17,632 bases of DNA from Deltaproteobacteria bacterium UBA5758 (GTDB lineage: Bacteria > Desulfobacterota > Syntrophorhabdia > Syntrophorhabdales > Syntrophorhabdaceae), in contig DIFC01000046.1 in NCBI GenBank assembly GCA_002418945.1, forward strand, positions 1 to 17,632, in the 5' to 3' direction. This document shows, in pieces, positions 3,371 through 17,632 of the stretch. Position numbers and translations under genes: made by a program. A model generated the notes under the pieces. That model was not told the origin of the DNA. It searched no databases and worked only from the letters and a program-made list of their open reading frames with translations. How positions within the stretch are numbered: the first letter of the stretch is position 1; each line of letters begins with the position of its first letter.

Positions 3371-3455
3371 GCCGAAGTGGTGGAATTGGCAGACACACCA
3401 TCTTGAGGGGGTGGCGGGGAGACCTGTGCGGGTTCAAATCCCGCCTTCGGCACCA
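3371..3455 (+). tRNA. tRNA-Leu, anticodon GAG, type II long variable arm, encoded CCA
   Basis: I hand-folded an 85-nt cloverleaf. The acceptor stem is GCCGAAG/CTTCGGC. The anticodon stem is CCATC/GGTGG with loop TTGAGGG (U33, anticodon GAG, purine 37). There is a 13-nt variable arm and a T arm GCGGG-TTCAAAT-CCCGC, followed by discriminator A and CCA. Confidence 0.9.
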
Positions 3456-3646
3456 TATAACTATTTGTTTCATTAGAATAAATACCCCGTAAAATCTGGT
3501 TCTATTTTTAAGAGCGATAACCTTTCGTATCATCTTTATGATACTGAGCCGTCGAACATTACTTTGTTGAATGTTGCAGATGGTATTCAGTAATACTTTT
3601 AAAAATATTTTATGATATAATAAATAATATATTGGGTGGGGTTACT

Positions 3647-4279
3647 ATGGGATGGAAAAACATTATACTGGATTTTGACGGAACACTTATTGATTCACAG
3701 CATCTTTTTCTTGCCTGTGCAAACGAATTAAGCGAGGTATTCGGATATGAACCGATCGACCAGATCTCAAGGCTGCGCGAGAAAAGCACGCCCTCCGTGC
3801 TGACTGACGTGCTGGGTCTGCTGCCTGAACAGATACCTCTATGGATGCAGAAATTAAAGGACAGGCTTAGTAACAATATACGCAGCGCTGTTACAGTCAA
3901 GGGGATGAAAGAAGCCCTCTTTGCCCTGCGGGATGACTATCGTCTGGGCATATTGACATCGAACTCTGAAGAGACGGTGAGGCATATTCTTGTTAGAGAT
4001 GGTATTGGACAAGTCGATTTCATATGGGCTGACGCATATGTATTAGAAAAGGATAGGGCTATCGAGGGGGCGGTGGCAAAATATGCCCTTTCTCGGGAAG
4101 AGACGGTTTATGTCGGGGATGAGGTAGGAGATGTTGACGCCTGCCGAAAAGTGGGTATCAAGATTATCGCTGTGTCCTGGGGCTTCAACTCCAAAAAAAT
4201 ACTTGAAAGAAAGGAACCGGACTATCTGGTTGAAACGCCGATGCAGTTACGTTCCATCTTAAAAACTTATGATATTTAA
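3647..4279 (+). CDS. HAD-superfamily hydrolase, phosphoglycolate-phosphatase-like (capped type)
   Basis: HAD motif I ILDFDGTLIDS (DxDGT), motif II LTSNS and motif IV YVGDEVGDVDA. I prefer ATG 3647, which has a GGTGGGG SD 5 nt upstream, over the TTG at 3632 used by the ORF track. Confidence 0.75.
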   Translation: MGWKNIILDFDGTLIDSQHLFLACANELSEVFGYEPIDQISRLREKSTPSVLTDVLGLLPEQIPLWMQKLKDRLSNNIRSAVTVKGMKEALFALRDDYRLGILTSNSEETVRHILVRDGIGQVDFIWADAYVLEKDRAIEGAVAKYALSREETVYVGDEVGDVDACRKVGIKIIAVSWGFNSKKILERKEPDYLVETPMQLRSILKTYDI

Positions 4280-4380: not shown

Positions 4381-5034
4381 ATGACTATACGCTTAATTCT
4401 GGCTGACGATCACAAAATAGTACGAGAGGGGCTTCGTGCCATCTTTGAAAAAATAACCGATGTTGAAGTGATTGCAGAGGCCGAGGATGGATTGGAAACA
4501 GTGCGACTCGCCAAAAAATTGCTGCCGGACATTGTGATCATGGATATAGGCATGCCCAATATGAACGGCATCGATGCTACCCGTCAGATCATAGCAGAGA
4601 CCAAGGGCGTAAGGGTGCTTGCGCTATCCACGCACACAGACAGCAAGTTTGTAATGCAAATGCTGGGTGCAGGCGCATCGGGATACCTCCCCAAGGATTG
4701 TACCTGCGAGGAGCTTGTAGCGGCGCTTCATGCGGCAATCACAAACCAGCTTTATCTAAGTCCGCGGATAACTGATGTGGTGATAAGAGAGTACCTCCAT
4801 AATCTCCCCAAAAGGGAGCCTTCCGTATTTACCATACTAACAACCCGTGAGCGGGAAGTGCTTCAAATGATGGCCGAGGGAAAAACAACAAAAGAGATTG
4901 CATCAAGGCTTAATGTAAGCGTAAAAACAGTTGATACCCATCGCCAGCAGATAATGGCGAAGCTCAATATTCACAGCATTGCAGAGCTTACGAAATATGC
5001 GATTCGCGAGGGGATCACCTCCCTCGAACCTTAA
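4381..5034 (+). CDS. NarL/FixJ (LuxR-type HTH) family response regulator with no adjacent histidine kinase
   Basis: The receiver domain has acidic pocket LADDH, the phospho-acceptor context IVIMDIGMPNMNG and a conserved Lys (YLPKD). The C-terminal LuxR/GerE HTH reads LTTREREVLQMMAEGKTTKEIASRLNVSVKTVDTHRQQIMAKL. Confidence 0.9.
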   Translation: MTIRLILADDHKIVREGLRAIFEKITDVEVIAEAEDGLETVRLAKKLLPDIVIMDIGMPNMNGIDATRQIIAETKGVRVLALSTHTDSKFVMQMLGAGASGYLPKDCTCEELVAALHAAITNQLYLSPRITDVVIREYLHNLPKREPSVFTILTTREREVLQMMAEGKTTKEIASRLNVSVKTVDTHRQQIMAKLNIHSIAELTKYAIREGITSLEP

Positions 5035-5110
5035 GTCGCCTCGCACCCGTACAGCCATCTTCTGTACTAATTTTCATACATTTGGAAGGTCAAAATCATA
5101 CTTTCGCCGA

Positions 5111-5139
5111 TTGTCGACAGCCTAAATGGCGTGTACACT
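5111..5139 (+). promoter_or_regulatory. Weak candidate sigma-70 promoter for the 5288-12624 unit (TTGTCG-17 nt-TACACT)
   Basis: TTGTCG lies at 5111-5116, followed by a 17-nt spacer and TACACT at 5134-5139. Both hexamers sit inside 8-bp palindromes (TGTCGACA and GTGTACAC). This is a pattern match only. Confidence 0.25.
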
Positions 5140-5287
5140 TGTAAAATAGAGCAAAAGCAAACAAGGAGGCGATAGAGTATTCGGTAGATAAGATATAACG
5201 ATTGATATAGGCATTAATGGTAAGCAATTTCTAGGATGCTGTGATATATGTTATGGGAAGTATCAAATAAAAAAAGGGGGCTACGAA

Positions 5288-6361
5288 ATGAATCCTGGAA
5301 AAACAGAAAGATGGGTAGTTTCTTTTCAAGAATGCGGAAAGGATGACGCCGGTTTAGTAGGGGGCAAGTCTGCCAACCTGGGAGAAATGTGCAAACTGGG
5401 AATCCCTGTCCCGCTGGGATTCACCGTTACGAGCGAAGTAAATAAAAGATTCTTCGAAATTACCAGCAATGAAAAAAAGATCGAGGAATTCCTCAGTAAG
5501 TTTCCCGAGAAGCCGACCGCCATTGATGAATTTAACGAAATAGCCAACTACGTTCAAAACCTTATTGAATCAACAGAGATCCCGGTAGAATTTCAAAAGC
5601 CAATCTCCGAGGCATACAGTGGTCTATGTGACAGGTATAAGGTAAAAGATGTTCCTGTGGCCGTCAGATCAAGCGGTGTAGCGGAAGACATGGCAATGGC
5701 AAGCTTTGCCGGGCAATACGATTCATATCTCAATGTGCAGGGCACGGAGGAGGTCTTCAAAAACGTGCTGAAGTGCTGGGCCAGTGCATTTACTCCACGC
5801 TGCATATCGTATCGTATCAAGAATAATTTGCCTATTTTCTCGAAAGCTGTCTCAGTGGCGGTTGCAGTGCAAAAAATGGTCAGGTCTCGTGCCTCCGGGG
5901 TAGGATTTACCGTTAATCCGAATACGGGCAATAAAACAAAGATAGTGCTCGAAGGTAATTGGGGAGTAGGTGAAAGCGTAGTTCAGGGGATAGTGGAACC
6001 GGACAGGTTCGAAGTTGATAAGGAGACGCTTAGAGTAGTAAATGCAGAAATCCGCTGCAAGCAGAAACAGGTCGTATTCTCAGAAAAGGGCACCATAGAG
6101 CAAGACGTTCCTGCGGAAAAACAGAAGACACCTTGTATAGCGCACTGTGAGGCTGAGATGGTGGCAAAGTGCGCAAAGATGGCTGAAGAATATTATGGCT
6201 TGCCCCTGGATATAGAGTGGGCCATAGACACAGATCTCGAATTTCCCCAGAATGTCTTTTTAGTGCAGGCGCGCCCTGTTACTGCGATGGCCACAGAAAG
6301 AAGCGCAACGGAAAAGATCCTCGATTTTTTGTGCACCCGTACATTCCCGGTGAGCCATTAA
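5288..6361 (+). CDS. PEP synthase/PPDK N-terminal ATP-grasp (nucleotide-binding) domain protein, stand-alone; similar to the phenylphosphate synthase beta subunit (PpsB)
   Basis: 357 aa (about 40 kDa). Motifs are GGKSANLGEM, VAVRSSGVAEDM..SFAGQ and IEWAI....FLVQARPVT, which characterise the PPDK_N/PpsA N-terminal domain. The ORF stops before any swivel-His or PEP/pyruvate TIM-barrel domain. An AAGGGGG SD lies upstream. Confidence 0.8.
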   Translation: MNPGKTERWVVSFQECGKDDAGLVGGKSANLGEMCKLGIPVPLGFTVTSEVNKRFFEITSNEKKIEEFLSKFPEKPTAIDEFNEIANYVQNLIESTEIPVEFQKPISEAYSGLCDRYKVKDVPVAVRSSGVAEDMAMASFAGQYDSYLNVQGTEEVFKNVLKCWASAFTPRCISYRIKNNLPIFSKAVSVAVAVQKMVRSRASGVGFTVNPNTGNKTKIVLEGNWGVGESVVQGIVEPDRFEVDKETLRVVNAEIRCKQKQVVFSEKGTIEQDVPAEKQKTPCIAHCEAEMVAKCAKMAEEYYGLPLDIEWAIDTDLEFPQNVFLVQARPVTAMATERSATEKILDFLCTRTFPVSH

Positions 6362-6378
6362 AAAACAGGAGAGTTATT

Positions 6379-7614
6379 ATGCCAAGAAGCATTGTCATCA
6401 TTGGGACCTTGGACACCAAATCTGAAGAAATTCTTTTCGCTAAGGAGCAGATCGAGCTTAGAGGTCATAAGGCGATCGTAATGGACATGAGTGTGGGCAG
6501 CAAACCGTCAGTCAAGGGGGATATTACCAGCCAGGAGGTGGCAAGGGAAGGCGGGGGCGACATAAAGGCGATATGGGGAAATCCGGATAGACCGAAGATC
6601 AACAAGATCATCACCGATGGCGCCATAAAGATATGCAACGAGCTCCTGAAGGAAGGAAAATTGGATGGGATTCTCTGTATCGGCGGCGCGGGCGGCACGC
6701 TTATCGGAACAGACGTGATGAAGGGTCTCCCTTTCGGGGTACCCAAATTTGTCATCTCCAGCAATGCAGCGCTTCCTGGATTTTCGTCAAAATATTTTGG
6801 CACAAAAGACATCACCATGATGCACACGATGGTAGATATTGCCGGATTGAATGATATCCTGAAGACTCTCTTAAGCCAGGCAGCCGGCGCTATTTGCGGA
6901 ATGGCAGAGGCATTTGCAATGTCGCCTCATACAACGTCCGATGCGGAGAAAAGGAAGTCTTCGGTTGCGCTCTGTGAGCTCATGGCGAGCGCAAAATGCA
7001 TCAGCAATATCAAGCGCCTCCTTGAAGAAAATGGTTATCAGGTAACTGTATTCATGGCAACCGGTGTTGGAGATACGGCAATGGAGGAGCTCATCAGCCA
7101 GGGGCTTTTTGATGCCGTATTGGATCTGTCTCCGGGAGGCATCATCGACAGCTTTATCGATGGCGGCACACGCAAGGCCTGCAAGGTAAGGTTGGAATCG
7201 GCAGGGCTCAAAGGGATTCCACAGGTCATCGTTCCTGGGGGGTTAGATTTTATTACGCCGCTGCTCTCAAAGTATAAACCGGAATATGATGAGCGAAAGA
7301 TCTTCAGGCCGGACAAGCTCAGGCAGCTCATCAGATCCAATATTGATGAATTAACCCGTGCCGCCGAAGTAATCGCCAAAAAGCTCAATGCAGCTAAGGG
7401 ACCTGTAAAATTCATAATACCCCTGAACGGGTGGTCCAGGGTCGACGGACCCGGAAGGCCTCTTTACGATCCTGAGGCGAATGCGGCATTTGTGAAAGAA
7501 TTGAGAAGACAGCTCAAGCCGGAAATTGAGGTCCGGGAGATCGATGCATGGATAGAAGACCCGGTCTTTGGCGATGTCCTGGTTGAGGCGCTCAATGAAA
7601 TGATGCACAAATAA
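6379..7614 (+). CDS. UPF0261 / Tm-1-like ATP-binding domain protein
   Basis: The N-terminus MPRSIVIIGTLDTKSEEILFAKEQIELRGHKAIVMD and the overall length of about 410 aa match my recollection of the UPF0261 family (Pfam PF06792). I chose ATG 6379 because it has an AGGAGAG SD at 6367-6373. The ORF-track start at 6217 overlaps the upstream gene and is an unlikely extension. Confidence 0.75.
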   Translation: MPRSIVIIGTLDTKSEEILFAKEQIELRGHKAIVMDMSVGSKPSVKGDITSQEVAREGGGDIKAIWGNPDRPKINKIITDGAIKICNELLKEGKLDGILCIGGAGGTLIGTDVMKGLPFGVPKFVISSNAALPGFSSKYFGTKDITMMHTMVDIAGLNDILKTLLSQAAGAICGMAEAFAMSPHTTSDAEKRKSSVALCELMASAKCISNIKRLLEENGYQVTVFMATGVGDTAMEELISQGLFDAVLDLSPGGIIDSFIDGGTRKACKVRLESAGLKGIPQVIVPGGLDFITPLLSKYKPEYDERKIFRPDKLRQLIRSNIDELTRAAEVIAKKLNAAKGPVKFIIPLNGWSRVDGPGRPLYDPEANAAFVKELRRQLKPEIEVREIDAWIEDPVFGDVLVEALNEMMHK

Positions 7615-7710
7615 GATGCCTTCACATATAAGGAGGTGGTGTTGTATGGCAGGTGCTTTCTTATAGTTTCAGAAGCATCCTAATACACAAAGAAAGGGAA
7701 GGAGGAAAAG

Positions 7711-9354
7711 ATGCGACCGCAACGTTATACAGATGAGATGGTTAAAGAATATTTGGATAAAGGCTACTGGACAAAGACTACCTACGCCGATCTGTTCGAA
7801 AGAAACGCTAAAGAGTATGCCCAAAAAGAAGCTTTTGTTGACGATTCGGGAAACAAATTTACATGGGCCGAGGCAAACCAGGCCGTAAACCGGCTTGCCT
7901 TGAAGCTTGTGGAACTGGGATATAACAAAGATGATACGCTTATGATCCAGCTCCCTAACCGCGTCGAGATCATCCTTATGCGCGTAGCATGCGAAAAGGC
8001 AGGGATCATCTCGATACCGGTGGTAAGGACCTTAAGACACGATGAAATAGGTTACATCCTGAAGCTTGCAGAGACAAAAGGCTATGTGGGCTTATGGAAA
8101 TTCAGAGATTTTGACTACTGGCAAATGATACAGGAGTTACGTCCAGGCCTGCCGGCATTAAAGAACATCTTTTTTTGCGGAGACGAGATCCCCGAAGGAG
8201 GAATCTCGATAAAAGAGGTCCTGGCAACCCCGATGGAGAAGAAATATTCAGTGGATGATTTGAAAAAGAGGCAGGTCCAGGTGGATGAAGTGGCATGGAT
8301 TGAGCTAAGCACGGGTACGACAGGTTTTCCCAAGGTTATACAGACGCCGATGGCGCTTGCTACATCGGTGTCTCCGTCGCATATGGCGAAGATCAAGATG
8401 ACCGGCGATGACGTAGCATGCGCCTTTGCCCCTATCTCAGGCGCAGGGCGCGGCCTCGCACGATTTACCCCTTTTGTGGCCGCGAAAGGAGTTTTGATGG
8501 AGCATTTTGATGCAGAAGATGCCTTCAAGCTCATAGAAAAGGAAAAGATATCGATACCAATGGTGGTGCCGGCCCAGCTTGCAATGATGCTCCAGAGCAC
8601 GAATTACACTAAATACGATCTGAGGTCACTCCGTGTATTCCAGGTTGCGGGCGCCCCGCTTCCTCCGCATATTGCAGAAGAGGTTGAGACAAGATTCAAA
8701 TGCCTTGTGGTGAACCATTACGGCGGCATGGATGCCGGTTCCCTGACAAGCGTCAGCGCAGATGATCCTGTGGAAGTGAGGCGCTTCTCCGTAGGAAAAC
8801 CCCACCCGGGAAATGAGATCAGATTGCTCGATGATAACGGGAAAGAGGTAAAACACGGAGAAGTCGGTGCAGTATATTTTAAGGGGCCTACCTCTGTCGG
8901 AGGATATTACAAAGATCCCGCAATGACAAAAGAGGCCTGGGGGGCAAATGGATTCAACATGGGCGACCTGGCAAAGTTCGATGAACAGGGGAATCTCTAT
9001 ATCGTAGGCAGAAAGAAAGACATCATAATCCGCGGCGGTTTTAATGTCTATCCCGCCGAGGTAGAGGCTATCCTTGTGACGCACCCAAAGGTGGAGGCGG
9101 CTGCAGTTGTCGGATACCCGGACCCGATAATGGGGGAAAGGGCGTGTGCCTATGTGGTGGTGAAGAAGGGCGAAACATTCACCTTTAAAGAGATGGGCGC
9201 CTATTTCAAAGAGAGGAAGATCAATCTTAACAAGACCCCGGAGAGGCTTGAGATCATAGAAAAGATGCCTCTTGTAGCCGATATGAAGCTGGACAAGAAG
9301 GTGCTGAAAGAAGACATACTTAACAAGGTCAAGAGTGAAGGCAAGGCCTCCTGA
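7711..9354 (+). CDS. ANL-superfamily aryl-acid AMP/CoA ligase (EntE/DhbE-like aromatic acid-activating enzyme)
   Basis: 547 aa. The N-terminus (YLDKGYWTKTTYADLFERNA) resembles EntE (YREKGYWQDLPLTDIL). It has the AMP-binding core LSTGTTGFPK, YGGMDAG aligning with FGMAEG of aryl-acid adenylases, and GDLA plus GRKKDIIIRGGFNVYPAEVE hinge/A8 motifs. An AGGAGG SD lies upstream. Confidence 0.85.
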   Translation: MRPQRYTDEMVKEYLDKGYWTKTTYADLFERNAKEYAQKEAFVDDSGNKFTWAEANQAVNRLALKLVELGYNKDDTLMIQLPNRVEIILMRVACEKAGIISIPVVRTLRHDEIGYILKLAETKGYVGLWKFRDFDYWQMIQELRPGLPALKNIFFCGDEIPEGGISIKEVLATPMEKKYSVDDLKKRQVQVDEVAWIELSTGTTGFPKVIQTPMALATSVSPSHMAKIKMTGDDVACAFAPISGAGRGLARFTPFVAAKGVLMEHFDAEDAFKLIEKEKISIPMVVPAQLAMMLQSTNYTKYDLRSLRVFQVAGAPLPPHIAEEVETRFKCLVVNHYGGMDAGSLTSVSADDPVEVRRFSVGKPHPGNEIRLLDDNGKEVKHGEVGAVYFKGPTSVGGYYKDPAMTKEAWGANGFNMGDLAKFDEQGNLYIVGRKKDIIIRGGFNVYPAEVEAILVTHPKVEAAAVVGYPDPIMGERACAYVVVKKGETFTFKEMGAYFKERKINLNKTPERLEIIEKMPLVADMKLDKKVLKEDILNKVKSEGKAS

Positions 9355-9381
9355 GTTGTTAAGGGAGGTTATTCTATATCA

Positions 9382-9404
9382 ATAACTATCAGGAAGATAG
9401 TTAT
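9382..9404. repeat. Perfect 9-bp inverted repeat with 5-nt spacer (ATAACTATC-aggaa-GATAGTTAT)
   Basis: Read directly from the sequence. It lies in the 64-nt ligase/ppsA-like intergenic region, 15 nt upstream of ATG 9419. Confidence 0.6.
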
Positions 9405-9418
9405 AAAAAGGGGGCATT

Positions 9419-11083
9419 ATGCATTATGGAAGGACACCGATGTGTTGGGAGATTACAGATTATGATCTTGAGCACTACCCTGTCTGGGTGAGGACGCCCG
9501 CTCACACAGAGCCGGTCATGACGCCGCTCTACTGTGAGTTCTGGTATGGGTACATGACGGACGGGATCCGCCGGGGCTGCGAATACATTTCGCTTCCCAC
9601 GACCCTTGGATATTACTGGAAGCTCTACAAGGGCCACGGTTATTTGACGCGGGCAATCCCGCTGGACAGCGAGATCCCCGCCAGGGAAAAAAGGTATCGT
9701 GAAATGGCGGCAAAGATCATTGATGATCCGTTCGGATTTTGCGACAGCATCTTTGCCAAGATGGATAAGCTCATGGAACCCTATTACGACATGAACCTTG
9801 AATCAATGACAAGGGGAGAGCTTATTGAGCATGTACACGATATGATCTACCTCCATACAAAAGCCATATACCTCTATTTTCAAGGCTGGTTTGGCGCAAC
9901 ACCGATGCCTGCGCTCTTTCAACAGCTTGCCGGGGAATTCACAGGTCTGAAGGCCACGGACCCGCTCTATTCAAAGCTGACGATAAGCATGGACAACCCT
10001 CTCTACAGGTCAAACCGGGGGATCGCCGACCTGGCGCGCCTGGCAATCGATTCAAAGATAGAGAAAAACCTGATGCTTCCCGACAATGAAGTAGTAAAAG
10101 CGATGGAACAGAGCGCGGCAGGAAAGAAATGGATTGAAGAGATGAAGAAATTTCTCAAGGTGCACGGATGGAAGCTGCTGCGCATGTACGAATTTGTTGA
10201 ACCGGGCTGGTATGAGGATCCGGCGATACTGATGCCCGATATAAAGAGATATATCGAAGTAGGTGGCGCGCACAAGATCGATGAAGATCGCGACGCAATG
10301 ACGAAAGAGAGGGATGAGTTGTCGAAGGAATTTCTTGCAAAGGTCCCCGAAGGCCAGCGGGACTGGATGGAAAAGCTCCTTGTGGCCGCACGCGCCGCAA
10401 ACCACTGGAGCGAGGGGGCGGCATGGCATGGTGAATTCAAACGCATGGCCTTCGGAAGGCGTTGTTTCATCGAATGCGGCAAGAGGATGGTCCAGGATGG
10501 AGCCCTCAATGATGTGAACGATGTATTTATGCTGTTCACCGATGAGATCATTTCCGCCGTCGGCAACCGGGAAAAGGGACGCTATGTACAGCTTGTCCAG
10601 GACAGGCGCAAGGAATGGGAAGGCTATAAGGCGCTCACATATGGTTCGGACGAAGTGCCCCCGGTTCTGGGCGACCCCAATGCCATCATGCCGATGCTCA
10701 AATTTGATCCCACGCTTACCGTGAGCATCTCTATGCCCATCGAAGATCCTGAAAAGGTGGGAGCCGTCTGCGTCGGCGGGGCAGGGAGCCCCGGTGTAGT
10801 TGAGGGGATCGCAAAGGTCATCTTTGATGAATCACAGTGGAAGGAGATCCAGAAAGGCGACATCATGGTCTGCCCCATGACAAGCGCCACGTGGACCCCG
10901 CTATTCGGTATTATCAAAGGGTTGGTATGCAATAGCGGAGGCTCTTTATCGCACCCGGTTATTGTGAGCCGCGAATATGGTATACCGGCAGTGGTCGGAA
11001 CGGGTGATGCTACCATGAAGATCAAGACAGGAGATAAGTTAAGGATCGACGGGAACCTCCTGAGGGTTTACAAGATAAGCTGA
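9419..11083 (+). CDS. PEP-utilising-enzyme swivel (phosphohistidine) domain protein with a large unassigned N-terminal domain; similar to the phenylphosphate synthase alpha subunit (PpsA)
   Basis: 554 aa. The C-terminal roughly 100 aa (GVVEGIAKVI...GDIMVCPMTSATWTPLF...NSGGSLSHPVIVSREYGIPAVVG) form a PEP-utilisers mobile domain with the catalytic His in GGSLSH. I could not assign the N-terminal roughly 430 aa. It has no ATP-grasp and no TIM-barrel domain. Confidence 0.72.
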   Translation: MHYGRTPMCWEITDYDLEHYPVWVRTPAHTEPVMTPLYCEFWYGYMTDGIRRGCEYISLPTTLGYYWKLYKGHGYLTRAIPLDSEIPAREKRYREMAAKIIDDPFGFCDSIFAKMDKLMEPYYDMNLESMTRGELIEHVHDMIYLHTKAIYLYFQGWFGATPMPALFQQLAGEFTGLKATDPLYSKLTISMDNPLYRSNRGIADLARLAIDSKIEKNLMLPDNEVVKAMEQSAAGKKWIEEMKKFLKVHGWKLLRMYEFVEPGWYEDPAILMPDIKRYIEVGGAHKIDEDRDAMTKERDELSKEFLAKVPEGQRDWMEKLLVAARAANHWSEGAAWHGEFKRMAFGRRCFIECGKRMVQDGALNDVNDVFMLFTDEIISAVGNREKGRYVQLVQDRRKEWEGYKALTYGSDEVPPVLGDPNAIMPMLKFDPTLTVSISMPIEDPEKVGAVCVGGAGSPGVVEGIAKVIFDESQWKEIQKGDIMVCPMTSATWTPLFGIIKGLVCNSGGSLSHPVIVSREYGIPAVVGTGDATMKIKTGDKLRIDGNLLRVYKIS

Positions 11084-11214
11084 TAGCGGGAAGCATAAAT
11101 CCAGGGAGCTTTTAAGCGGATAAAGAACAGGCAGGTCAGCGCCCGTAATGATGATTGCGGTTAGGCGCAGTGCTGAAGGCTCAAGGTTTATAAACTTATT
11201 TCGGAGGGTGAGCT

Positions 11215-12624
11215 ATGAAAGATTTACGAGACTTTATAGCCAAATGCGAGCAGGAAGGCGAGCTCCGTCGCATTAAGGCGGAGGTAGATTGGAATTTGGA
11301 ACTATCCCACGTAGCCAAAAAGAATGAAGAGCTGGGTGGCGGGTCCGCACTCCTCTTTGAGAATGTCAAGGGTTATAAAATACCGGTTTTTATAAGCGCA
11401 TTCACAAGACCCAGGCGGATGGCGATCGCCATGGGACAGCCGGTGCATTACTCCATGCAGGACCTGTCCCGGGAGTGGATGAATTTAGTCACCAAAAAGC
11501 TTATAAAGCCGAAGATGGTAAAGAAGGCCCCCCTCATGGAAAACGTACAGGCAGGGGATAAGGTCAACCTCTATGATCTGCCTGCCCCCTTCTTCAACAT
11601 ATTAGATGGGGGGAGATTTATCGGTACCGCTGTGTATCTCGTAACCAAAGACCCGGAGACAGGCTGGGTCAATCTTGGAACCTATCGGATGCAGATTCAC
11701 GAGAAGAACAAATGCGGAGTTCAGATCATTAAAGGCAAGCACGGCGACCTGATGCTTCAAAAATATAGAGCAAAAAAGCAAAAAATGCCTGCCGTGGCGG
11801 TCATTGGTGGTGACCCTCTACTGTATCTTGTCTCGAGTTGCATGGTTTCTGCCCAGACAGACGAATATGATATTGCAAGCACGCTGCGAGGGGAACCTAT
11901 AGACATCATAGAGAGCGACCTGACGGGTCTGCCCCTTCCGGCATATGCCGAAATTGCCTTAGAGGGAGAAATAGACCCGGACAACCTCATAACAGAAGGC
12001 CCCTTTGGTGAATACACCGGCTATTACTCGGGCAAGCCATCACCGAAGATATTTCTCGACGTGAAAAGGGTGCTGCACAGGAACAATCCCATCTTCTGGG
12101 CAACTGCTGTTGGAAGGCCGCCAAACGATGTAGTAATGATCCAGTCGCTTAACCGTACTGCGAGCCTATGGGCGGACTTGAAAGATATGAAGATCCCGGG
12201 AATAAAGGCCGTCCATGTTCCCGCTTCATCGTCCGGCAGGTACTGGGCAATCGTATCCGTCAAGCAACAGTATCCGGGCCATTCCATGCAGGTAGGAACG
12301 GCGGTTATTTCTACTACAACAGGAAGCTACGGCCTCAAGGGAGTTATTGTTGTAGGGGATGATATTGATGTTGAAAATTGGGATCAGATCATCTGGGCGC
12401 TTTCTGTGAGGTTTGACCCTGCACGTTCTGCGCAGATCATAAACAGGGGACGTTCAACTCCCCTGGATCCTTCCCTCCCTGTTGCGGCACGGGAGATCAC
12501 CTCGAGAATAATCATGGACGCTTGCACCCCATTTGAATGGAAAGAAATGCCGGTTCCCGTTGATCCGGATAAGGCAACAACAGAAAAGGTGGAGAAGAGA
12601 TGGAAAGAAATTTTTCCTGATTGA
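11215..12624 (+). CDS. UbiD-family prFMN-dependent aromatic (de)carboxylase
   Basis: 469 aa with UbiD-type N-terminus MKDLRDFIAKCEQEGELRRIK. The conserved GTYRMQ and EGPFGEYTGYY motifs are present (compare EGPFGDHTGYY in E. coli UbiD). A GGAGGGTG SD lies upstream. Confidence 0.9.
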   Translation: MKDLRDFIAKCEQEGELRRIKAEVDWNLELSHVAKKNEELGGGSALLFENVKGYKIPVFISAFTRPRRMAIAMGQPVHYSMQDLSREWMNLVTKKLIKPKMVKKAPLMENVQAGDKVNLYDLPAPFFNILDGGRFIGTAVYLVTKDPETGWVNLGTYRMQIHEKNKCGVQIIKGKHGDLMLQKYRAKKQKMPAVAVIGGDPLLYLVSSCMVSAQTDEYDIASTLRGEPIDIIESDLTGLPLPAYAEIALEGEIDPDNLITEGPFGEYTGYYSGKPSPKIFLDVKRVLHRNNPIFWATAVGRPPNDVVMIQSLNRTASLWADLKDMKIPGIKAVHVPASSSGRYWAIVSVKQQYPGHSMQVGTAVISTTTGSYGLKGVIVVGDDIDVENWDQIIWALSVRFDPARSAQIINRGRSTPLDPSLPVAAREITSRIIMDACTPFEWKEMPVPVDPDKATTEKVEKRWKEIFPD

Positions 12625-12658
12625 ACATGCTGAAAGTTCCTGCACAATGGTTTACATC

Positions 12659-12687
12659 GAAGAGACCCCGCGGCCCGGGGTCTCTTC
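12659..12687. terminator. Bidirectional intrinsic-terminator-like hairpin between convergent ubiD-family and MBL genes
   Basis: A perfect 12-bp GC-rich stem, GAAGAGACCCCG (12659-12670) / CGGGGTCTCTTC (12676-12687), has a 5-nt loop. It is followed by a T-rich stretch (TCATTT) on the + strand and sits 35 nt after the ubiD stop. Confidence 0.7.
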
Positions 12688-12722
12688 TCATTTGACCCCG
12701 GCCTGCAGCCCCGCCAACTCCA

Positions 12723-13703
12723 TCATATCCTCGAGTATACTATCTTTTTTTCTCTTGTCTCCTTTTTTATCATCCCTTTTCCTTCAAGGTATTTTAAATG
12801 GGCGATCGCCTCACCGGTAGCGAAAAATTTCTGCATGGCAGGAAAAGAACCCCAGGAGTCGCAATCAATATTCCATGTCATCTGCGATGCCACCTGGTAG
12901 GCATTTTGGCTGCATTCCTTCAGTATGGAGATAATTTCATTGCTCCGCTGCCTGTGATGGTCTTTCAATTCCCTGATCCTTTCTTTGCAATTCCTGAAGC
13001 TGCCTTTGTGGCCAGGCAAAACAAGTTTGATATCCAGTTCATACACCCTGTCCAGGCTTAAGAGGTATTCCTCCAAGGGGTTCGCGGCGTCATATCTTGA
13101 CAAAATAGAAGGCGTTATCTCATTGAGGAGATGATCTCCTGATATAAAGATCTTCTTATCGGGCTCGTATAGACACATATGGCCCCTGCTGTGACCAGGC
13201 GTTGCTACACATTGGAATCGGTATTCCCCTGCCTCTAATCTGTCTCCATCTGCCAGAAACGTAAAGGGGAGGGGTTTCCTCCACCAGTGGTCATGAACGG
13301 GGCGGAAAGTGAGGGCTTCCTGAAGCTCATCCTCGGGGAAACCGCTCATTCGGCCGGAATCAGTGAGCTCTTGCAAAAAATTGCCGGACCTCACCCAATC
13401 AATGCCGGCAGACTCTGTTTTGTTAAAGTATATGGTTGAGTTATCGGATATTAATGTGGGGGCAAGGCCGAAATGATCCATGTGAAAATGGGTAATGAAA
13501 AGGTCTGTTCTTTCCAGATCTACTCCAAGCTTCTCCAAACTTTTATGCATTGCCTGCCGGCCTTCTTCATTGTCCATCCCTGTATCGATAATCAGATTCC
13601 TGTTTTTTGCCTTGATGATATATGAGTTGACAAACTGCAAAACCATATCGGGAAGGGGAATCTCAATCTTGTATAAGTTTGCAGCGATTTGTTCTATCAT
13701 CAA
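12723..13703 (-). CDS. Metallo-beta-lactamase-fold hydrolase
   Basis: 326 aa with the MBL zinc motif ITHFHMDHFG (HxHxDH), a later TPGHSRGH and GDH. Specific activity is unknown. Confidence 0.85.
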   Translation of the reverse strand: MMIEQIAANLYKIEIPLPDMVLQFVNSYIIKAKNRNLIIDTGMDNEEGRQAMHKSLEKLGVDLERTDLFITHFHMDHFGLAPTLISDNSTIYFNKTESAGIDWVRSGNFLQELTDSGRMSGFPEDELQEALTFRPVHDHWWRKPLPFTFLADGDRLEAGEYRFQCVATPGHSRGHMCLYEPDKKIFISGDHLLNEITPSILSRYDAANPLEEYLLSLDRVYELDIKLVLPGHKGSFRNCKERIRELKDHHRQRSNEIISILKECSQNAYQVASQMTWNIDCDSWGSFPAMQKFFATGEAIAHLKYLEGKGMIKKETREKKIVYSRI

Positions 13704-14195
13704 CCTGACCTGCCTTGCATTATTGTACTGCTAACGGCGCTGCCGCATGTATGTTTTTCGCTGAAAGTGAGGGTACAACAGCCCGGGCAACGGGGTCAAG
13801 CCTTTTATTTTTGCATGTCAAGATTTCCCCGCGAGAAGCCGGTGAGTGGCCGGATGATGGGCGGGTACAGATTTTGATCCCCCCCTCACCCTTGACCCTC
13901 TTCCGCCAGGGGAGAGAGAACGGTGTTGCCTAATGAAAAGAGAACACACCAGTACTTATACACCGGCCCTCTAACGCGAGGGAAGGGATAACCTTACCCA
14001 ATCTGTAGGCTGGGACCTTCTGTAAATTATCATGCTAAATTGATCCAGTATTTTCACGAAAGCTGGTCCACCTGCATTATCCTGCCTTCTATCAGCAAAA
14101 CATGATAGGAGGAGAAAGGTGGTCAGCATAGAAGACGAACGCACAATATGTGGTGTAGGAAAAACAGGTGAACTGAAATTCATGAAAAAGTTGCA

Positions 14196-15338
14196 TCATG
14201 TATAGTTCTCGAGGAGAAGAGACAATGTCCGTTCGATACTGCCAGGTTCTTTCTCTTCAATTTCCCTTATCGCTTTCTTGATGCGGGCATAGGTGTATTT
14301 ATCCTGCAAGTCGCTGGTACTCTCATACATTCCTGTCATTCTCCCGTATCGATAAACAAGCCTTTGCTCTTCAGTCAGTGCAAAAAAGTCATTGATTACG
14401 GACAATAGATGATCTTTATCTTCGGGAAGCTTGCCATCCACCTCTTGAAGGAGATTAAAGATGTGGTCGCTTTTTATGTGGCTGGTTATGCCTTCAAGCC
14501 GTTCTATAATGGACTTTTCCTCAACAAGAACCTCCTCTTCATGCAGTATTGTGAAATCACCACTTTCTACTTTTTGGTAGAGTGGCATCCCTCTCAATAC
14601 CTTCAAGGTCCTAAAGCGAATGAACGCCGGATTAATCCTGTTTAACGTATCAGAAGTTTCTGAGACATGCTCCTTCCACCATCTTTTGCCTCCTAGTCCA
14701 AGGATCACATACTCTGAGAGCTCGATGCCTGATTCCTTTACTTTTTGCGCACAATCAATATGCTCCTCTTTTGTTACCCCTTTGTTCATATACTTTAGGA
14801 GAAGATTACTTCCCGTTTCAAGACCGATGTGAAGCCTTGTCAGACCTGCTTCCCGCATTCTTACAAGGTCATCAACGGTAAATCGTTTTGCAATGGTGCG
14901 GGAACGGGCGTAGGAAGTTATTCTTTCGATAGAGGGAAATTGTTCTTTCAAGTATGAAAGGGCTTCAATAAAATCTCCGGGCTTCATGACCAGAGAATCA
15001 GCATCCTGAATAAAAACGTTCCGGCCCCCAGAATAGAGCCAGATTGCAATGCTTGCAAAGTATTCGTTGTAGAAATATGTTGAGGTGATGATGTTGAGAA
15101 AGTTGTCGTTAATAGCCCCGCCGAAGCCTTTTTCCCACGACAGGGCAACGATTTCGTCCCGTATTTTACGGATAGAATCAATGTCTTTTTTAATTTCTTC
15201 AACGCTGCGTTTTTCGAATCTATTATTTTTAAAGGTTCTGCAGAAGAGACACTTATTCCATGGACAATTTCTTGTAAATCTCACAAGGAGACTGCCTGCT
15301 TCGTTTGGTGGTCGTATCGGCCCTATTTCGTTATACAA
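14196..15338 (-). CDS. Radical SAM domain protein with non-canonical CX4CX2C cluster motif
   Basis: 380 aa. The N-terminus reads PIRPPNEAGSLLVRFTRNCPWNKCLFC. Its Cys spacing is C-x4-C-x2-C rather than CX3CX2C. The only in-frame start after the upstream stop is TTG at 15338, with a weak GGTG SD. Confidence 0.8.
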   Translation of the reverse strand: MYNEIGPIRPPNEAGSLLVRFTRNCPWNKCLFCRTFKNNRFEKRSVEEIKKDIDSIRKIRDEIVALSWEKGFGGAINDNFLNIITSTYFYNEYFASIAIWLYSGGRNVFIQDADSLVMKPGDFIEALSYLKEQFPSIERITSYARSRTIAKRFTVDDLVRMREAGLTRLHIGLETGSNLLLKYMNKGVTKEEHIDCAQKVKESGIELSEYVILGLGGKRWWKEHVSETSDTLNRINPAFIRFRTLKVLRGMPLYQKVESGDFTILHEEEVLVEEKSIIERLEGITSHIKSDHIFNLLQEVDGKLPEDKDHLLSVINDFFALTEEQRLVYRYGRMTGMYESTSDLQDKYTYARIKKAIREIEEKEPGSIERTLSLLLENYT

Positions 15339-15362: not shown

Positions 15363-15971
15363 TCAGGTTCTCCGGTTTCCAACACTTTGTGCGAGTTCAA
15401 TCTTGTTCGCGGCCTCCCCCTCCCATCTTTGAAAGAGATTGTGATCTATATCCATAAGGTCCAGTATCTTGCCCACGATGTGATCTATAAGATCCTCGAT
15501 TTTTCTTGGATAATGATAAAAGGCAGGAACAGGGGGTAGAATTACGCCGCCCCGGTCGGCTACTTTAGTCATTAACTCAAGATGGCCCTTGTGAAGAGGT
15601 GTTTCCCTGACTACCAAAACAAGTCGCCGCCCTTCCTTCAGCATTACATCGGCTGCCCTTGTAATAAGGTTGTCATTATAGGAACTGGCTACGCCAGATA
15701 ACGTTTTGATGGTACACGGGACGATTACCATTCCGTCTGTTTTGAAGGACCCGCTTGAGATAGAAGCCGCCATATCCTTGGGGTTATAAAGCCTCGAAGC
15801 AAACTTTTTGACGTCTTTTACTGTCATATCGGTCTCAATGATAATATTTTGCTCGGCTGCTTCAGACATCACAACGTGTGACTCGATATCCGTGTCTTGC
15901 AACACTTCCAGTAGCCTCACGCCATAAATGACCCCGGTTGCCCCCGTGATTCCTACGATGATTTTCTTCAT
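15363..15971 (-). CDS. ubiX: UbiX-type flavin prenyltransferase (prFMN synthase)
   Basis: Motifs are MKKIIVGITGATG, SSGSF, PCTIKTL, VRETPLH and PAFY. I chose ATG 15971 because a perfect AGGAGG SD (15984-15979) lies 7 nt upstream. The ORF-track TTG at 16001 adds 10 unlikely residues. Confidence 0.9.
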   Translation of the reverse strand: MKKIIVGITGATGVIYGVRLLEVLQDTDIESHVVMSEAAEQNIIIETDMTVKDVKKFASRLYNPKDMAASISSGSFKTDGMVIVPCTIKTLSGVASSYNDNLITRAADVMLKEGRRLVLVVRETPLHKGHLELMTKVADRGGVILPPVPAFYHYPRKIEDLIDHIVGKILDLMDIDHNLFQRWEGEAANKIELAQSVGNRRT

Positions 15972-16021
15972 TCCGTGGCCTCCTGTACAGAGCATCTTCA
16001 ACTGTTTTGAGTTTTAAATTA

Positions 16022-16207: not shown

Positions 16208-17632
16208 TTATTTGGTGATGATGTTGTACAGTTTCATCTTTTTGTAAAGAGTAACCCTTGACATATTTAGGAGTATTGCTGCCTGCCTTTTGTTGCCCTT
16301 GGTTCTTTCGAGAACGGATAAAATCAAATTTTTTTCATCCTTTTCAGGCATTCGGCTTTCCGCGGAAAAAACATGAGCAAAACCGGTCTCTTGGTCCTCG
16401 GGGGAAAGTATTTCTCTCGGCAGGTGTTCTAATGCAATCTCGCGCGCATCCCATGCAGTGATGGCTATCTGCTCCAGTATGTGTATAAGTTGCCTTACAT
16501 TCCCGGGCCACTGGTAGCTGATAAGCTTATCCAAAGCTTCTTTGGTATATCCTCTGATATTGGTTTTAAAGGATTTATTGATATTATCCAGGAAAGAATG
16601 CAAATACAAGGGGATATCTTCCGGGCGTTCACGCAGACTGGGGGCGTGCAGACTTGCTGAGGCTACCCTGTAATAAAGATCATGGCGAAATTTTCCTTCC
16701 TCTACGAGTTTGCGCAGGTCCACATTTGTGGCCGCAATAAACCGGAAATTTACCTTAACGGCCTTGTTGCTTCCCAACCTTTGTATCTCTCTCTCCTGAA
16801 GCACACGTAAAAGCTTTGCCTGAATCGAGAGGGGCAATGACGAGATTTCATCTAAAAACACGATGCCATTATTAGCTGTCTCAAAAATGCCTGCTTTGCC
16901 CGATGAATTTGCGCCTGTATATGCCCCCTTCTCGTACCCAAAAAGTTGGGATTCGGCGAGTTCAAAAGGAATGGCAGGGCAATTTAATTTTACAAAAGGC
17001 TTATCGTTGCACCGGTAGCTATGAATGCTGTGGGCGAACAATTCCTTACCGGTTCCACTCTCTCCCTCAATCAGAACATCGGCATCAAGCATTGATATTC
17101 TTTTTGCAGTAGCTACGGTGTCTCGGATTAACCAGCTTTTGCCTAAGATACTGTCAAAGGTGTATGCCGAACTGTACTCAGTTTTCTGCCTTTGCTTGAG
17201 ATTGTGCATTTCATTCTTCAGACGAGTTATTTCTTTGTGCACCTTTTCCAGTTCTTCAAGAGGATGAAAGACTATCCTCCCGATGGCGCCAACAATCTCC
17301 CCCTTTGTTCTGAGTGGATAAACAGAAGTTACCCTCTTGACCTCCCCGACTTCCCTTACTCTCCCGATGACAGGGGTTCCTGTTGTTATCGCCAATTGGT
17401 AATCTGAAGCGGGCGCCAGCTCCAGTATGTTCTTGCCTATGCCGCCGCCGGGTTGTAGCCCCAAAAATTTCTCTGTCGGTGGGTCGATGAACTGGATAAT
17501 GTAATTTTTGTCTATTACCGTAATGCTTTCATAACGGTTTTTGAAGCAAAACTTTACTACTGAAGCAATGACAGGGTTATATGGGTACGGTTCAATCGCC
17601 GCGAGCAAATCCTGCCTTTCCTTGTTCTTCAT
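16208..17632 (-). CDS. Sigma-54-dependent transcriptional activator (PAS-like sensor, AAA+ domain, Fis-type HTH)
   Basis: Walker A GESGTGKE, sigma-54 contact loop GAYTGA (a GAFTGA variant), Walker B VFLDEI, and the C-terminal HTH RQAAILLNMSRVTLYKKMK. An N-terminal segment of about 140 aa looks like a PAS-type sensor, and there is no receiver domain. The ATG sits on the last 3 nt of the window, so the true N-terminus may lie outside it. Confidence 0.9.
   Translation of the reverse strand: MKNKERQDLLAAIEPYPYNPVIASVVKFCFKNRYESITVIDKNYIIQFIDPPTEKFLGLQPGGGIGKNILELAPASDYQLAITTGTPVIGRVREVGEVKRVTSVYPLRTKGEIVGAIGRIVFHPLEELEKVHKEITRLKNEMHNLKQRQKTEYSSAYTFDSILGKSWLIRDTVATAKRISMLDADVLIEGESGTGKELFAHSIHSYRCNDKPFVKLNCPAIPFELAESQLFGYEKGAYTGANSSGKAGIFETANNGIVFLDEISSLPLSIQAKLLRVLQEREIQRLGSNKAVKVNFRFIAATNVDLRKLVEEGKFRHDLYYRVASASLHAPSLRERPEDIPLYLHSFLDNINKSFKTNIRGYTKEALDKLISYQWPGNVRQLIHILEQIAITAWDAREIALEHLPREILSPEDQETGFAHVFSAESRMPEKDEKNLILSVLERTKGNKRQAAILLNMSRVTLYKKMKLYNIITK

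Follow-up and report, generated by a model that had tools for sequence, protein, structure and literature searches.

A five-gene block resembling the aniline-activation cluster of Desulfatiglans anilini in a probable Syntrophorhabdus-like anaerobe

The 17,632-nucleotide (nt) stretch of contig DIFC01000046.1 analyzed here (the window) carries five co-oriented genes for a split phosphoenolpyruvate (PEP) synthase-like dikinase, a UPF0261 protein, an aryl-acid-CoA ligase and a UbiD-family carboxylase subunit. The question raised by this block is whether it encodes a new route of aromatic activation or a known one. The original prediction, made from the sequence, had called both the substrate and the subunit composition undescribed. 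That claim was not borne out, since the published ani cluster of Desulfatiglans anilini, which serves anaerobic aniline degradation (Xie et al., 2020; PMC7500099), matches the block gene for gene. The UbiD protein falls inside a characterized clade and the same gene order occurs in this already studied degrader, so the locus adds a new, probably syntrophic, lineage to those with an ani-type block for aniline/4-aminobenzoate activation, and the pathway itself is already known. We consider it probable that the block activates aniline, or a closely related arylamine, and 4-aminobenzoate without oxygen, probably in a Syntrophorhabdus-like anaerobe. This reading draws on homology, synteny and conserved catalytic residues, and on biochemical work published for the orthologues in D. 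anilini.

The block and its counterpart in D. anilini

The D. anilini cluster (contig AULM01000060.1, locus L096 among the loci compared) was set against the window protein by protein. As shown in Table 1, the gene order was identical in the two clusters, the protein lengths corresponded closely, and full-length identities ranged from 51 to 71%. In the window, the five genes follow one another on the forward strand with successive gaps of 17, 96, 64 and 131 nt, and the list of open reading frames (ORFs) and the Pfam domains agreed with the gene positions and spacing predicted earlier. The predicted split of the synthase was likewise upheld: one protein contained PPDK_N only and another PEP-utilizers only, and Pfam found no PEP/pyruvate TIM barrel in the 15 major ORFs of the window. 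No CBS protein, second UbiD or KdsC-like HAD protein was found among these ORFs either, and the sole HAD protein nearby (3632-4279) is phosphoglycolate-phosphatase-like (HAD-IA). PpsC (CBS), PpcA, the gamma subunit and the KdsC-like delta subunit were all missing from the cluster. The lone UbiD, the lack of gamma, delta and CBS subunits, the inserted UPF0261 and ligase genes and the ligase type ("EntE-like") had been listed as differences that set this locus apart; they are present, but all of them are features of the ani cluster.

The D. anilini orthologues have been studied biochemically (PMC7500099). Levels of all five ani proteins were high with aniline and with 4-aminobenzoate; on phenol and benzoate the proteins were scarce or absent. 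Refolded Pas-alpha (PasA) and Pas-beta (PasB) converted aniline and ATP into phenylphosphoamidate in vitro, and Ppc-beta of the ani cluster together with Ppc-beta2 of the phenol (phe) cluster converted phenylphosphoamidate into 4-aminobenzoate. PasAB also phosphorylated phenol, and the ani carboxylase did not convert phenylphosphate. The acyl-CoA synthetase H567DRAFT_03870 was induced by aniline and 4-aminobenzoate, and the authors proposed that it is the 4-aminobenzoyl-CoA ligase. Orthology to this system supports the predicted sequence of steps, in which a hydroxy- or amino-aromatic compound is phosphorylated, carboxylated and thioesterified. The aniline scheme of D. anilini had been cited earlier as an analogy; the system was indeed the relevant one, but it had gone unrecognized as the actual gene-for-gene counterpart.

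By orthology, the window organism would use the same substrate as D. anilini, and the pathway could proceed as follows. Having bound ATP, PasB would pass the beta,gamma-diphosphoryl group on to His512 in the PasA swivel domain. Phosphate would be released, and the phospho-His would swing to the helical domain of PasA, of the rifampin phosphotransferase (RPH) type, and phosphorylate the amino group of aniline, giving phenylphosphoamidate, AMP and Pi as the products of this step. The PpcB-type UbiD, with prenylated flavin mononucleotide (prFMN) from the nearby UbiX and probably paired with a second UbiD subunit encoded elsewhere, would then displace the phosphoryl group by para-carboxylation to yield 4-aminobenzoate. 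The ligase would convert 4-aminobenzoate into 4-aminobenzoyl-CoA, which an enzyme encoded outside the window would reductively deaminate to benzoyl-CoA. The UPF0261 protein would be a conserved, co-induced fifth component, ATP-binding by its motif and presumably a binder of the aromatic or aryl-phosphoryl compound.

Table 1. Features of the window, with the D. anilini counterparts of the five block genes (PMC7500099); aa, amino acids.
Feature	Position	Strand	Length, domains or remarks	D. anilini counterpart	Identity (%)
PasB-like ATP-grasp subunit of split dikinase	5288-6361	+	357 aa, PF01326 PPDK_N	H567DRAFT_03868, pyruvate, water dikinase (Pas-beta, pasB), 353 aa	51
UPF0261 (MarK-family) protein	6379-7614	+	411 aa, PF06792 + PF23189	H567DRAFT_03869, uncharacterized UPF0261-family protein, 411 aa	62
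Aryl-acid-CoA ligase, candidate 4-aminobenzoate-CoA ligase	7711-9354	+	547 aa, PF00501 + PF13193	H567DRAFT_03870, acyl-CoA synthetase, 549 aa	66
PasA-like subunit, RPH-type helical domain and C-terminal swivel	9419-11083	+	554 aa, PF00391	H567DRAFT_03871, PEP synthase/PPDK (Pas-alpha, pasA), 554 aa	71
PpcB-type UbiD carboxylase subunit, prFMN-dependent	11215-12624	+	469 aa, UbiD_N/UbiD/UbiD_C	H567DRAFT_03872, beta subunit of phenylphosphate carboxylase (ppcB-type UbiD), 473 aa	69
UbiX flavin prenyltransferase	15363-16001	-	NF004685, 272 bits vs cut-off 188		
AT-rich intergenic region 5' of block, presumed promoter region	5035-5287	+	253 nt		
GC-rich hairpin GAAGAGACCCCG-CGGCC-CGGGGTCTCTTC	12659-12687	.	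perfect 12 bp, between convergent UbiD and metallo-beta-lactamase-fold genes		
Metallo-beta-lactamase-fold protein and radical SAM protein	12723-15338	-	between UbiD and UbiX		
Sigma-54 activator gene	16208-17632	-	5' of UbiX		
tRNA-Leu, anticodon GAG	3371-3455	+	immediately 3' of secG, closing the gap-pgk-tpi-secG housekeeping operon		

Split dikinase, carboxylase and ligase

The ATP-grasp protein was covered by PPDK_N over residues 23-339 (E = 1.8e-97), had no further Pfam domain and matched the N-terminal domain of RPH (NF041857, 240 bits). In the PasA-like protein, the PEP-utilizers swivel domain identified by Pfam was confined to residues 477-546. Alignment located the catalytic histidine that had been expected in this protein: H512 was invariant among 21 homologues and aligned with His825 of Listeria RPH. 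In D. anilini, His512 of Pas-alpha, which has the same number, is the equivalent of His569 of Thauera aromatica Pps-alpha according to the authors (PMC7500099). His512 is the predicted phospho-carrier of the PasA-like subunit.

The N-terminal region of about 430 aa had been described as unassigned, which was incorrect. NCBIfam models for RPH, PigC and RedH matched the PasA-like protein from residue ~120-220 onward, and the homologues of PasA carry Pfam PF27448 (Rph_4th). Moreover, the AlphaFold model of the protein, built from an alignment (pLDDT 90.5, pTM 0.89), superposed on RPH-Lm 5FBU over ~590 columns (TMq 0.70, E = 1.9e-19). The family matches, the Rph_4th domain of the homologues and the superposition indicate that this region has the substrate-binding fold of RPH. 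As modeled, PasA and PasB together are an RPH-type three-domain phosphotransferase that is split over an ATP-grasp chain and a chain with the substrate domain and the swivel.

The same protein bears on the possibility that the block is a phenol module of the kind found in strict anaerobes (Geobacter or the D. anilini phe cluster), with phenylphosphate synthase, a PpcB-only carboxylase and a 4-hydroxybenzoate-CoA ligase. The Geobacter and D. anilini phe clusters have a PpcB homologue only, and the latter has an induced dihydroxybenzoate-AMP (DHB-AMP)-type ligase; lone PpcB, UPF0261, the DHB-AMP-type ligase and UbiX are shared between phenol-type clusters and the window. NCBIfam gives the window UbiD the name of phenylphosphate carboxylase beta, and the activity of D. 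anilini PasAB on phenol would also suit a phenol module. The His-carrying protein, however, was 71% identical to Pas-alpha and only 25-34% identical to PpsA-type proteins of 560-620 aa. When it was compared with the PpsA-type NCBIfam family PRK08296, the best sub-model scored 167 bits against a cut-off of 578 and covered residues 181-550 only. In addition, phenol does not induce the ani proteins of D. anilini, whose ani carboxylase is inert on phenylphosphate (PMC7500099), and the window UPF0261 protein lacks the residues G195 and H219 (MarK numbering, see below) that phenol-type copies keep. We therefore regard a phenol module as very unlikely.

The UbiD protein passed the equivalog cut-off of the NCBIfam model for phenylphosphate carboxylase beta, TIGR02724 (phenyl_P_beta), with 546.5 against 468.95 bits (E = 4e-164). 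It retained 109/109 of the columns conserved at >=98% in a 126-member family alignment. A neighbor-joining tree of 126 sequences, built without a characterized T. aromatica reference, placed it in a single clade with all UbiDs of ani-type synteny (92/100 bootstraps), within which the core group of the window, D. anilini 03872 and Desulfobacula types was recovered in 95/100 bootstraps. Together with the passed model and the 69% identity to 03872, this clade removes the claim of novelty from the carboxylase, just as the gene order of 03868-03872 removes it from the block.

The position of the UbiD protein also bears on the proposed alternative of a reverse route, in which an aryl-CoA made by the ligase is decarboxylated by UbiD, as in phthaloyl-CoA decarboxylase, and to which the kinase genes do not belong. 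In its favor, UbiD catalysis can in principle run in both directions, and the block has an adjacent CoA ligase gene. The match to phthaloyl-CoA decarboxylase 8OZ5, however, reached only 37 bits (E = 1.3e-8), while other UbiD structures scored 250 bits and the PpcB model gave E = 4e-164. Furthermore, a strict linkage of ligase and UbiD to the split dikinase holds across lineages, and the orthologous UbiD acts on phenylphosphoamidate (PMC7500099). A decarboxylating route is hardly credible for this block, and the suggestion was not supported.

The ligase scored 334 bits with the NCBIfam model for medium-chain fatty-acid-CoA ligase, 306 bits with that for cyclohexanecarboxylate-CoA ligase and 297 bits with that for DHB-AMP ligase, and no model reached its cut-off. 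The earlier label "EntE-like" is accordingly a loose one, as the DHB-AMP ligase model does match but stands behind two others. The UbiX gene downstream is probably an accessory gene that makes prFMN for UbiD and is transcribed separately; UbiX homologues also adjoin related UbiD clusters in L093, L003, L034 and L098.

Several points weigh against the assignment to aniline. The identities to the D. anilini proteins are only 51-71%, so the substrate specificity is not fixed by them, and substrate and expression are read across from D. anilini orthologues to the window organism. PasAB of D. anilini itself accepts phenol besides aniline, and the D. anilini assays were run with proteins refolded from inclusion bodies and with FMN instead of prFMN (PMC7500099). 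The window has one UbiD, while carboxylation in D. anilini required two, of which Ppc-beta2 is encoded outside the ani cluster (PMC7500099). Mo-hydroxylase genes of the 4-hydroxybenzoyl-CoA-reductase type, candidates for the 4-aminobenzoyl-CoA reductase, flank the block in D. anilini L096, Desulfobacula L001 and Thermincola L088, and none is present among the ORFs of the 17.6-kb window; such a gene could lie elsewhere in the genome. As for transcription, no block promoter was identified in the region 5' of 5288, the hairpin at the block end has no U-tract, and gene spacing is what suggests that the five genes are co-transcribed.

Part of this evidence would suit the same enzymology with another substrate, a substituted aniline or an amino- or hydroxy-aromatic compound (toluidines, aminophenols, halo-anilines) that is N- or O-phosphorylated, para-carboxylated and thioesterified. 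Besides the level of identity, the two substrates of PasAB and the 4-X-benzoyl-CoA reductase genes that are missing here and present beside other ani blocks, the UbiDs of the ani clade have hardly any signature positions of their own, a sign that the carboxylation step may discriminate little between substrates. On the other hand, the window proteins nest inside the clade that contains D. anilini, not beside it, and three of the four UPF0261 pocket positions are the same as in D. anilini. A different substrate is unlikely on balance, and activation of aniline or a close arylamine remains the favored reading.

The UPF0261 component

The UPF0261 protein is the one component of the block that the literature leaves unexplained. 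Its start was placed at 6379, and not at that of the longer GTG-initiated ORF from 6217, because the D. anilini orthologue has 411 aa. An activity of this family was first shown for MarK (Saro_1862; PDB 9MPY), which phosphorylates aromatic hydroxyl groups at the expense of ATP, with ADP as product (Hall et al., 2025; PMC12624787). The ATP site of MarK is D14-T15-K16, and its phenol-binding residues G195, H219 and H304 were reported to be >90% conserved (PMC12624787).

The window protein was 31% identical to MarK (E = 1.8e-51), and its residues D12-T13-K14 correspond to D14-T15-K16. At the positions of G195, H219, H304 and H348 of MarK it has M202, M226, P311 and V355. M, M and P occupy the first three of these positions in all ani-type UPF0261 orthologues. 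The resulting pocket signature, M/M/P/[IV], is the same in the window and in D. anilini 03869 at three of the four positions, and the fourth has V for I. Among the nearest 136 representatives of UPF0261 clusters at 50%, G/H was found in 109 and M/M in none. The UPF0261 copies beside PpsA-type (phenol-type) synthases in L013, L014, L018, L024, L034 and L098 have kept G195 and H219.

D. anilini has a separate copy for each pathway. In the published proteome table (replicate 1, mass-spectrometry signal areas; PMC7500099), the ani copy 03869 reached 5.4e9 on 4-aminobenzoate and 6.5e8 on aniline, with 0 on both benzoate and phenol. The corresponding values of the phe copy 02057 were 0 on 4-aminobenzoate, 5.0e7 on aniline, 5.3e7 on benzoate and 2.5e9 on phenol. 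The ani copy was thus detected only on aniline and 4-aminobenzoate, and the phe copy was ~50-fold more abundant on phenol. The latter, H567DRAFT_02057, has 403 aa and is encoded between the ubiX-like gene 02056 and the genes of the DHB-AMP-type ligase 02058 and ppc-beta2 02059 (PMC7500099). Neither 03869 nor 02057 is discussed in the two D. anilini papers.

Judging from residues and gene context, we infer a pathway-specific role for UPF0261, with binding of either the aromatic substrate or the phosphorylated compound made from it; it may be a second kinase, a partner of the carboxylase or something else. A further step, which we put forward as a tentative possibility, is that UPF0261 would be an integral, substrate-recognizing part of the aryl-phosphate and aryl-phosphoamidate carboxylation systems of strict anaerobes, and no bystander. 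Three observations speak for it. D. anilini keeps a separate copy for each pathway, and each responds to the substrate of its pathway; the gene always adjoins that of the ATP-grasp subunit or of the lone PpcB-type UbiD, whose stop codon it overlaps with its start in L098; and the pocket co-varies with the pathway, with G/H in the phenol type and M/M in the aniline type. The slow reactions of refolded D. anilini proteins in vitro proceeded without UPF0261 (PMC7500099). The protein could handle phosphoryl groups as a partner in place of the delta (phosphatase), alpha and gamma subunits known from the Thauera enzyme and missing here. It might also run the MarK reaction backwards, from aryl-phosphate and ADP to ATP, and so recover part of the activation cost.

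If true, such a role would address the long-standing lack of demonstrable phenylphosphate carboxylase activity in extracts of Geobacter or D. anilini, and would bear on how energy-limited anaerobes afford the activation of aromatic compounds. UPF0261 genes belong to the aniline as well as the phenol clusters of strict anaerobes, and the protein could explain why lone-PpcB carboxylases resist reconstitution in vitro.

Distribution, flanking genes and comparison with known systems

The five-gene block was also found in a Desulfobacula metagenome-assembled genome (MAG; L001), in Thermincola MAGs (L088 and L089), in further MAGs or metagenome contigs (L093 and L094), and in D. anilini (L096 and L097). 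The order pasB, UPF0261, acyl-CoA synthetase, pasA, UbiD recurs in L001, L088 and L093. Across 97 loci, PasA homologues of >=68% identity had all five partners wherever the contig was long enough. At 48-49% identity the ATP-grasp protein, UPF0261 and the ligase were kept and UbiD was absent, and the partner content of more distant homologues was variable. A profile search of genome contigs with the PasA alignment was flooded by distant PEP-utilizer relatives, none above 42% identity, and D. anilini was not among its matches.

Some of these loci differ in composition. L094:8458-14101 has the permuted order PasA, UbiD, PasB, UPF0261, and its neighbors are hydantoinase A/B genes and a gene resembling acetone carboxylase gamma, which correspond to an ATP-dependent carboxylase of acetone/acetophenone type. 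The 48-49% homologues in L082:293-9855, L083, L084 and L092:1829-15305 belong to a different conserved block, with electron transfer flavoprotein alpha/beta, an FAD oxidoreductase, a short-chain dehydrogenase/reductase, an aldehyde:ferredoxin oxidoreductase and a ligase alongside the PasA-like protein, a PasB that carries a fused receiver (REC) domain, UPF0261 and RidA; UbiD is lacking. Judged by its genes, this block may encode a further arylamine or aromatic pathway, as yet undescribed. This dikinase family is repeatedly associated with REC domains (L096:984-3140, L001:3488-5659 and L082:6662-8161): D. anilini 03867 and its Desulfobacula counterpart are Rph_4th/PEP-utilizers/REC fusions of 718-723 aa, and the 48-49% tier has PPDK_N-REC fusions.

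A phenol-type cluster was observed in L098:6964-13898, from a Burkholderiaceae MAG (GCA_046348365.1). It comprises a XylR-type sigma-54 regulator, PpsA (611 aa), PpsB, a lone PpcB-type UbiD, the overlapping UPF0261 gene, a CBS protein and UbiX. This locus shows that the combination of a lone UbiD and UPF0261 also occurs with PpsA-type synthases outside the strict anaerobes.

The closest relative, L085, was 97% identical in PasA and 95% identical in UbiD at the protein level. L085:1206-4520 shares DNA (88% identity) only with window positions 9380-12692, the PasA-UbiD segment. A DDE_3 insertion-sequence transposase gene lies directly 5' of PasA at the start of the L085 contig, and the homology ends at 12692, just past the hairpin, where unrelated genes (Nramp, GreA) follow. 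This limited homology suggests that the block stands in different contexts among close relatives. In L086, the 3' end of a ligase gene precedes PasA, as in the window.

As to the host, the phosphoglycerate kinase encoded upstream shared 86% identity with the protein of a Syntrophorhabdus sp. MAG and 71-74% with those of other Syntrophorhabdaceae or Syntrophorhabdales. This single marker indicates that the host is probably Syntrophorhabdus-like. The literature search returned no paper that connects the Syntrophorhabdus group with aniline, and such a host would be new for an ani-type block.

The region 5' of the block was also inspected. The Shine-Dalgarno sequence AAAGGGGG precedes the ATG at 5288, and a weak hairpin (5049-5067) lies 3' of the upstream response-regulator gene. 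That gene encodes a stand-alone NarL-type regulator (4381-5034, +) directly 5' of the block, and the window has no sensor kinase. A sigma-54 promoter for the block was conceivable given the sigma-54 activator gene of the window. It was rejected, as no -24/-12 element with <=2 mismatches was found 5' of 5288 and the number of matches in the window was at or below chance. A sigma-54-like element, TGGTATGACATTTGC (TGGTAT-N5-TTGC), occurs at 16037-16023 (-), ~22 nt 5' of the UbiX start; its position alone is suggestive, since the match count in the window was not above chance.

Downstream of UbiD, the original prediction had seen a strong terminator. The perfect 12-bp GC-rich hairpin is there, and the surrounding 98 nt fold at -31.8 kcal/mol (z = -2.2), but no T-run follows and the consensus terminator scan did not call it. 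It is probably a terminator without U-tract. The metallo-beta-lactamase-fold protein beyond it has 326 aa (best match, Strvi_7410 family) and the radical SAM protein 380 aa, with weak matches to models of B12-binding methyltransferase type; a gap of 492 nt separates the two genes. None of the metallo-beta-lactamase, radical SAM, HAD and NarL-type flanking genes was conserved near other ani blocks, and UbiX alone recurs. The Rfam and tRNA scans found no RNA gene in the window besides the tRNA-Leu.

Aniline and related arylamines are widespread industrial pollutants, and their oxygen-free degradation has been resolved enzymatically in one organism only, according to the literature searched. The loci compared show the ani core to be a five-gene block that is conserved and transferable, and at least three distant lineages carry it (the window, Desulfobacula and Thermincola, plus MAG loci). 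Its probable Syntrophorhabdus-like syntrophic host points to aniline activation in methanogenic communities, for which the block offers a marker set. What remains of interest at this locus is the distribution of the block and its UPF0261 component.

Among known systems, the benzene-activation clusters of ORM2 'Magic' and BzS1 were considered and rejected, because their gene content (flavoprotein/Hdr-like, CoA-transferase and hydratase genes) is unrelated to the block. With MarK, the window UPF0261 protein shares the two-domain UPF0261 architecture and the D-T-K motif, but MarK works alone with a biotin-type carboxylase and the window protein is encoded inside a dikinase/UbiD cluster. The ATP-grasp, helical substrate-binding and swivel-His domains of RPH (RPH-Lm; PDB 5FBS, 5FBT, 5FBU and 5HV1) are all present. 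RPH, however, is one chain of ~865 aa and the window machinery consists of two proteins, the identity in the structural alignment was 17-19%, and the proposed substrate is a small arylamine instead of rifampin.

Thauera aromatica PpsABC has in common with the window the split dikinase with ATP-grasp and His-carrier subunits and the products AMP and Pi, and PpcABCD has in common a UbiD-family carboxylase that acts on a phosphorylated intermediate, with the PpcB family found in both. In contrast to Thauera, the window has a His subunit of 554 aa (vs. ~610 aa), the ligase and UPF0261 genes inside the unit, and no CBS PpsC, PpcA, gamma subunit or KdsC-like delta subunit. N-phosphorylation of an amine is proposed for the window, whereas Thauera carries out O-phosphorylation of phenol. 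With the pps-ppc cluster of Geobacter metallireducens, D. anilini phe and L098, the window shares the PpcB-only carboxylase, UPF0261, a DHB-AMP-type ligase and UbiX. These phenol clusters differ by their PpsA-type (~610-aa) synthases, their UPF0261 copies with G195 and H219, and their induction by phenol and not by aniline.

The closest system is the D. anilini ani cluster, which shares with the window the five genes and their order, the catalytic His512, the lone PpcB-type UbiD and the lack of gamma, delta and CBS subunits. The window differs from it in that no PasA-like/REC fusion protein (03867) is encoded upstream, in that UbiX lies near the block and not in a phe cluster as in D. anilini, and in its host, which is probably Syntrophorhabdus-like and not Desulfatiglans.

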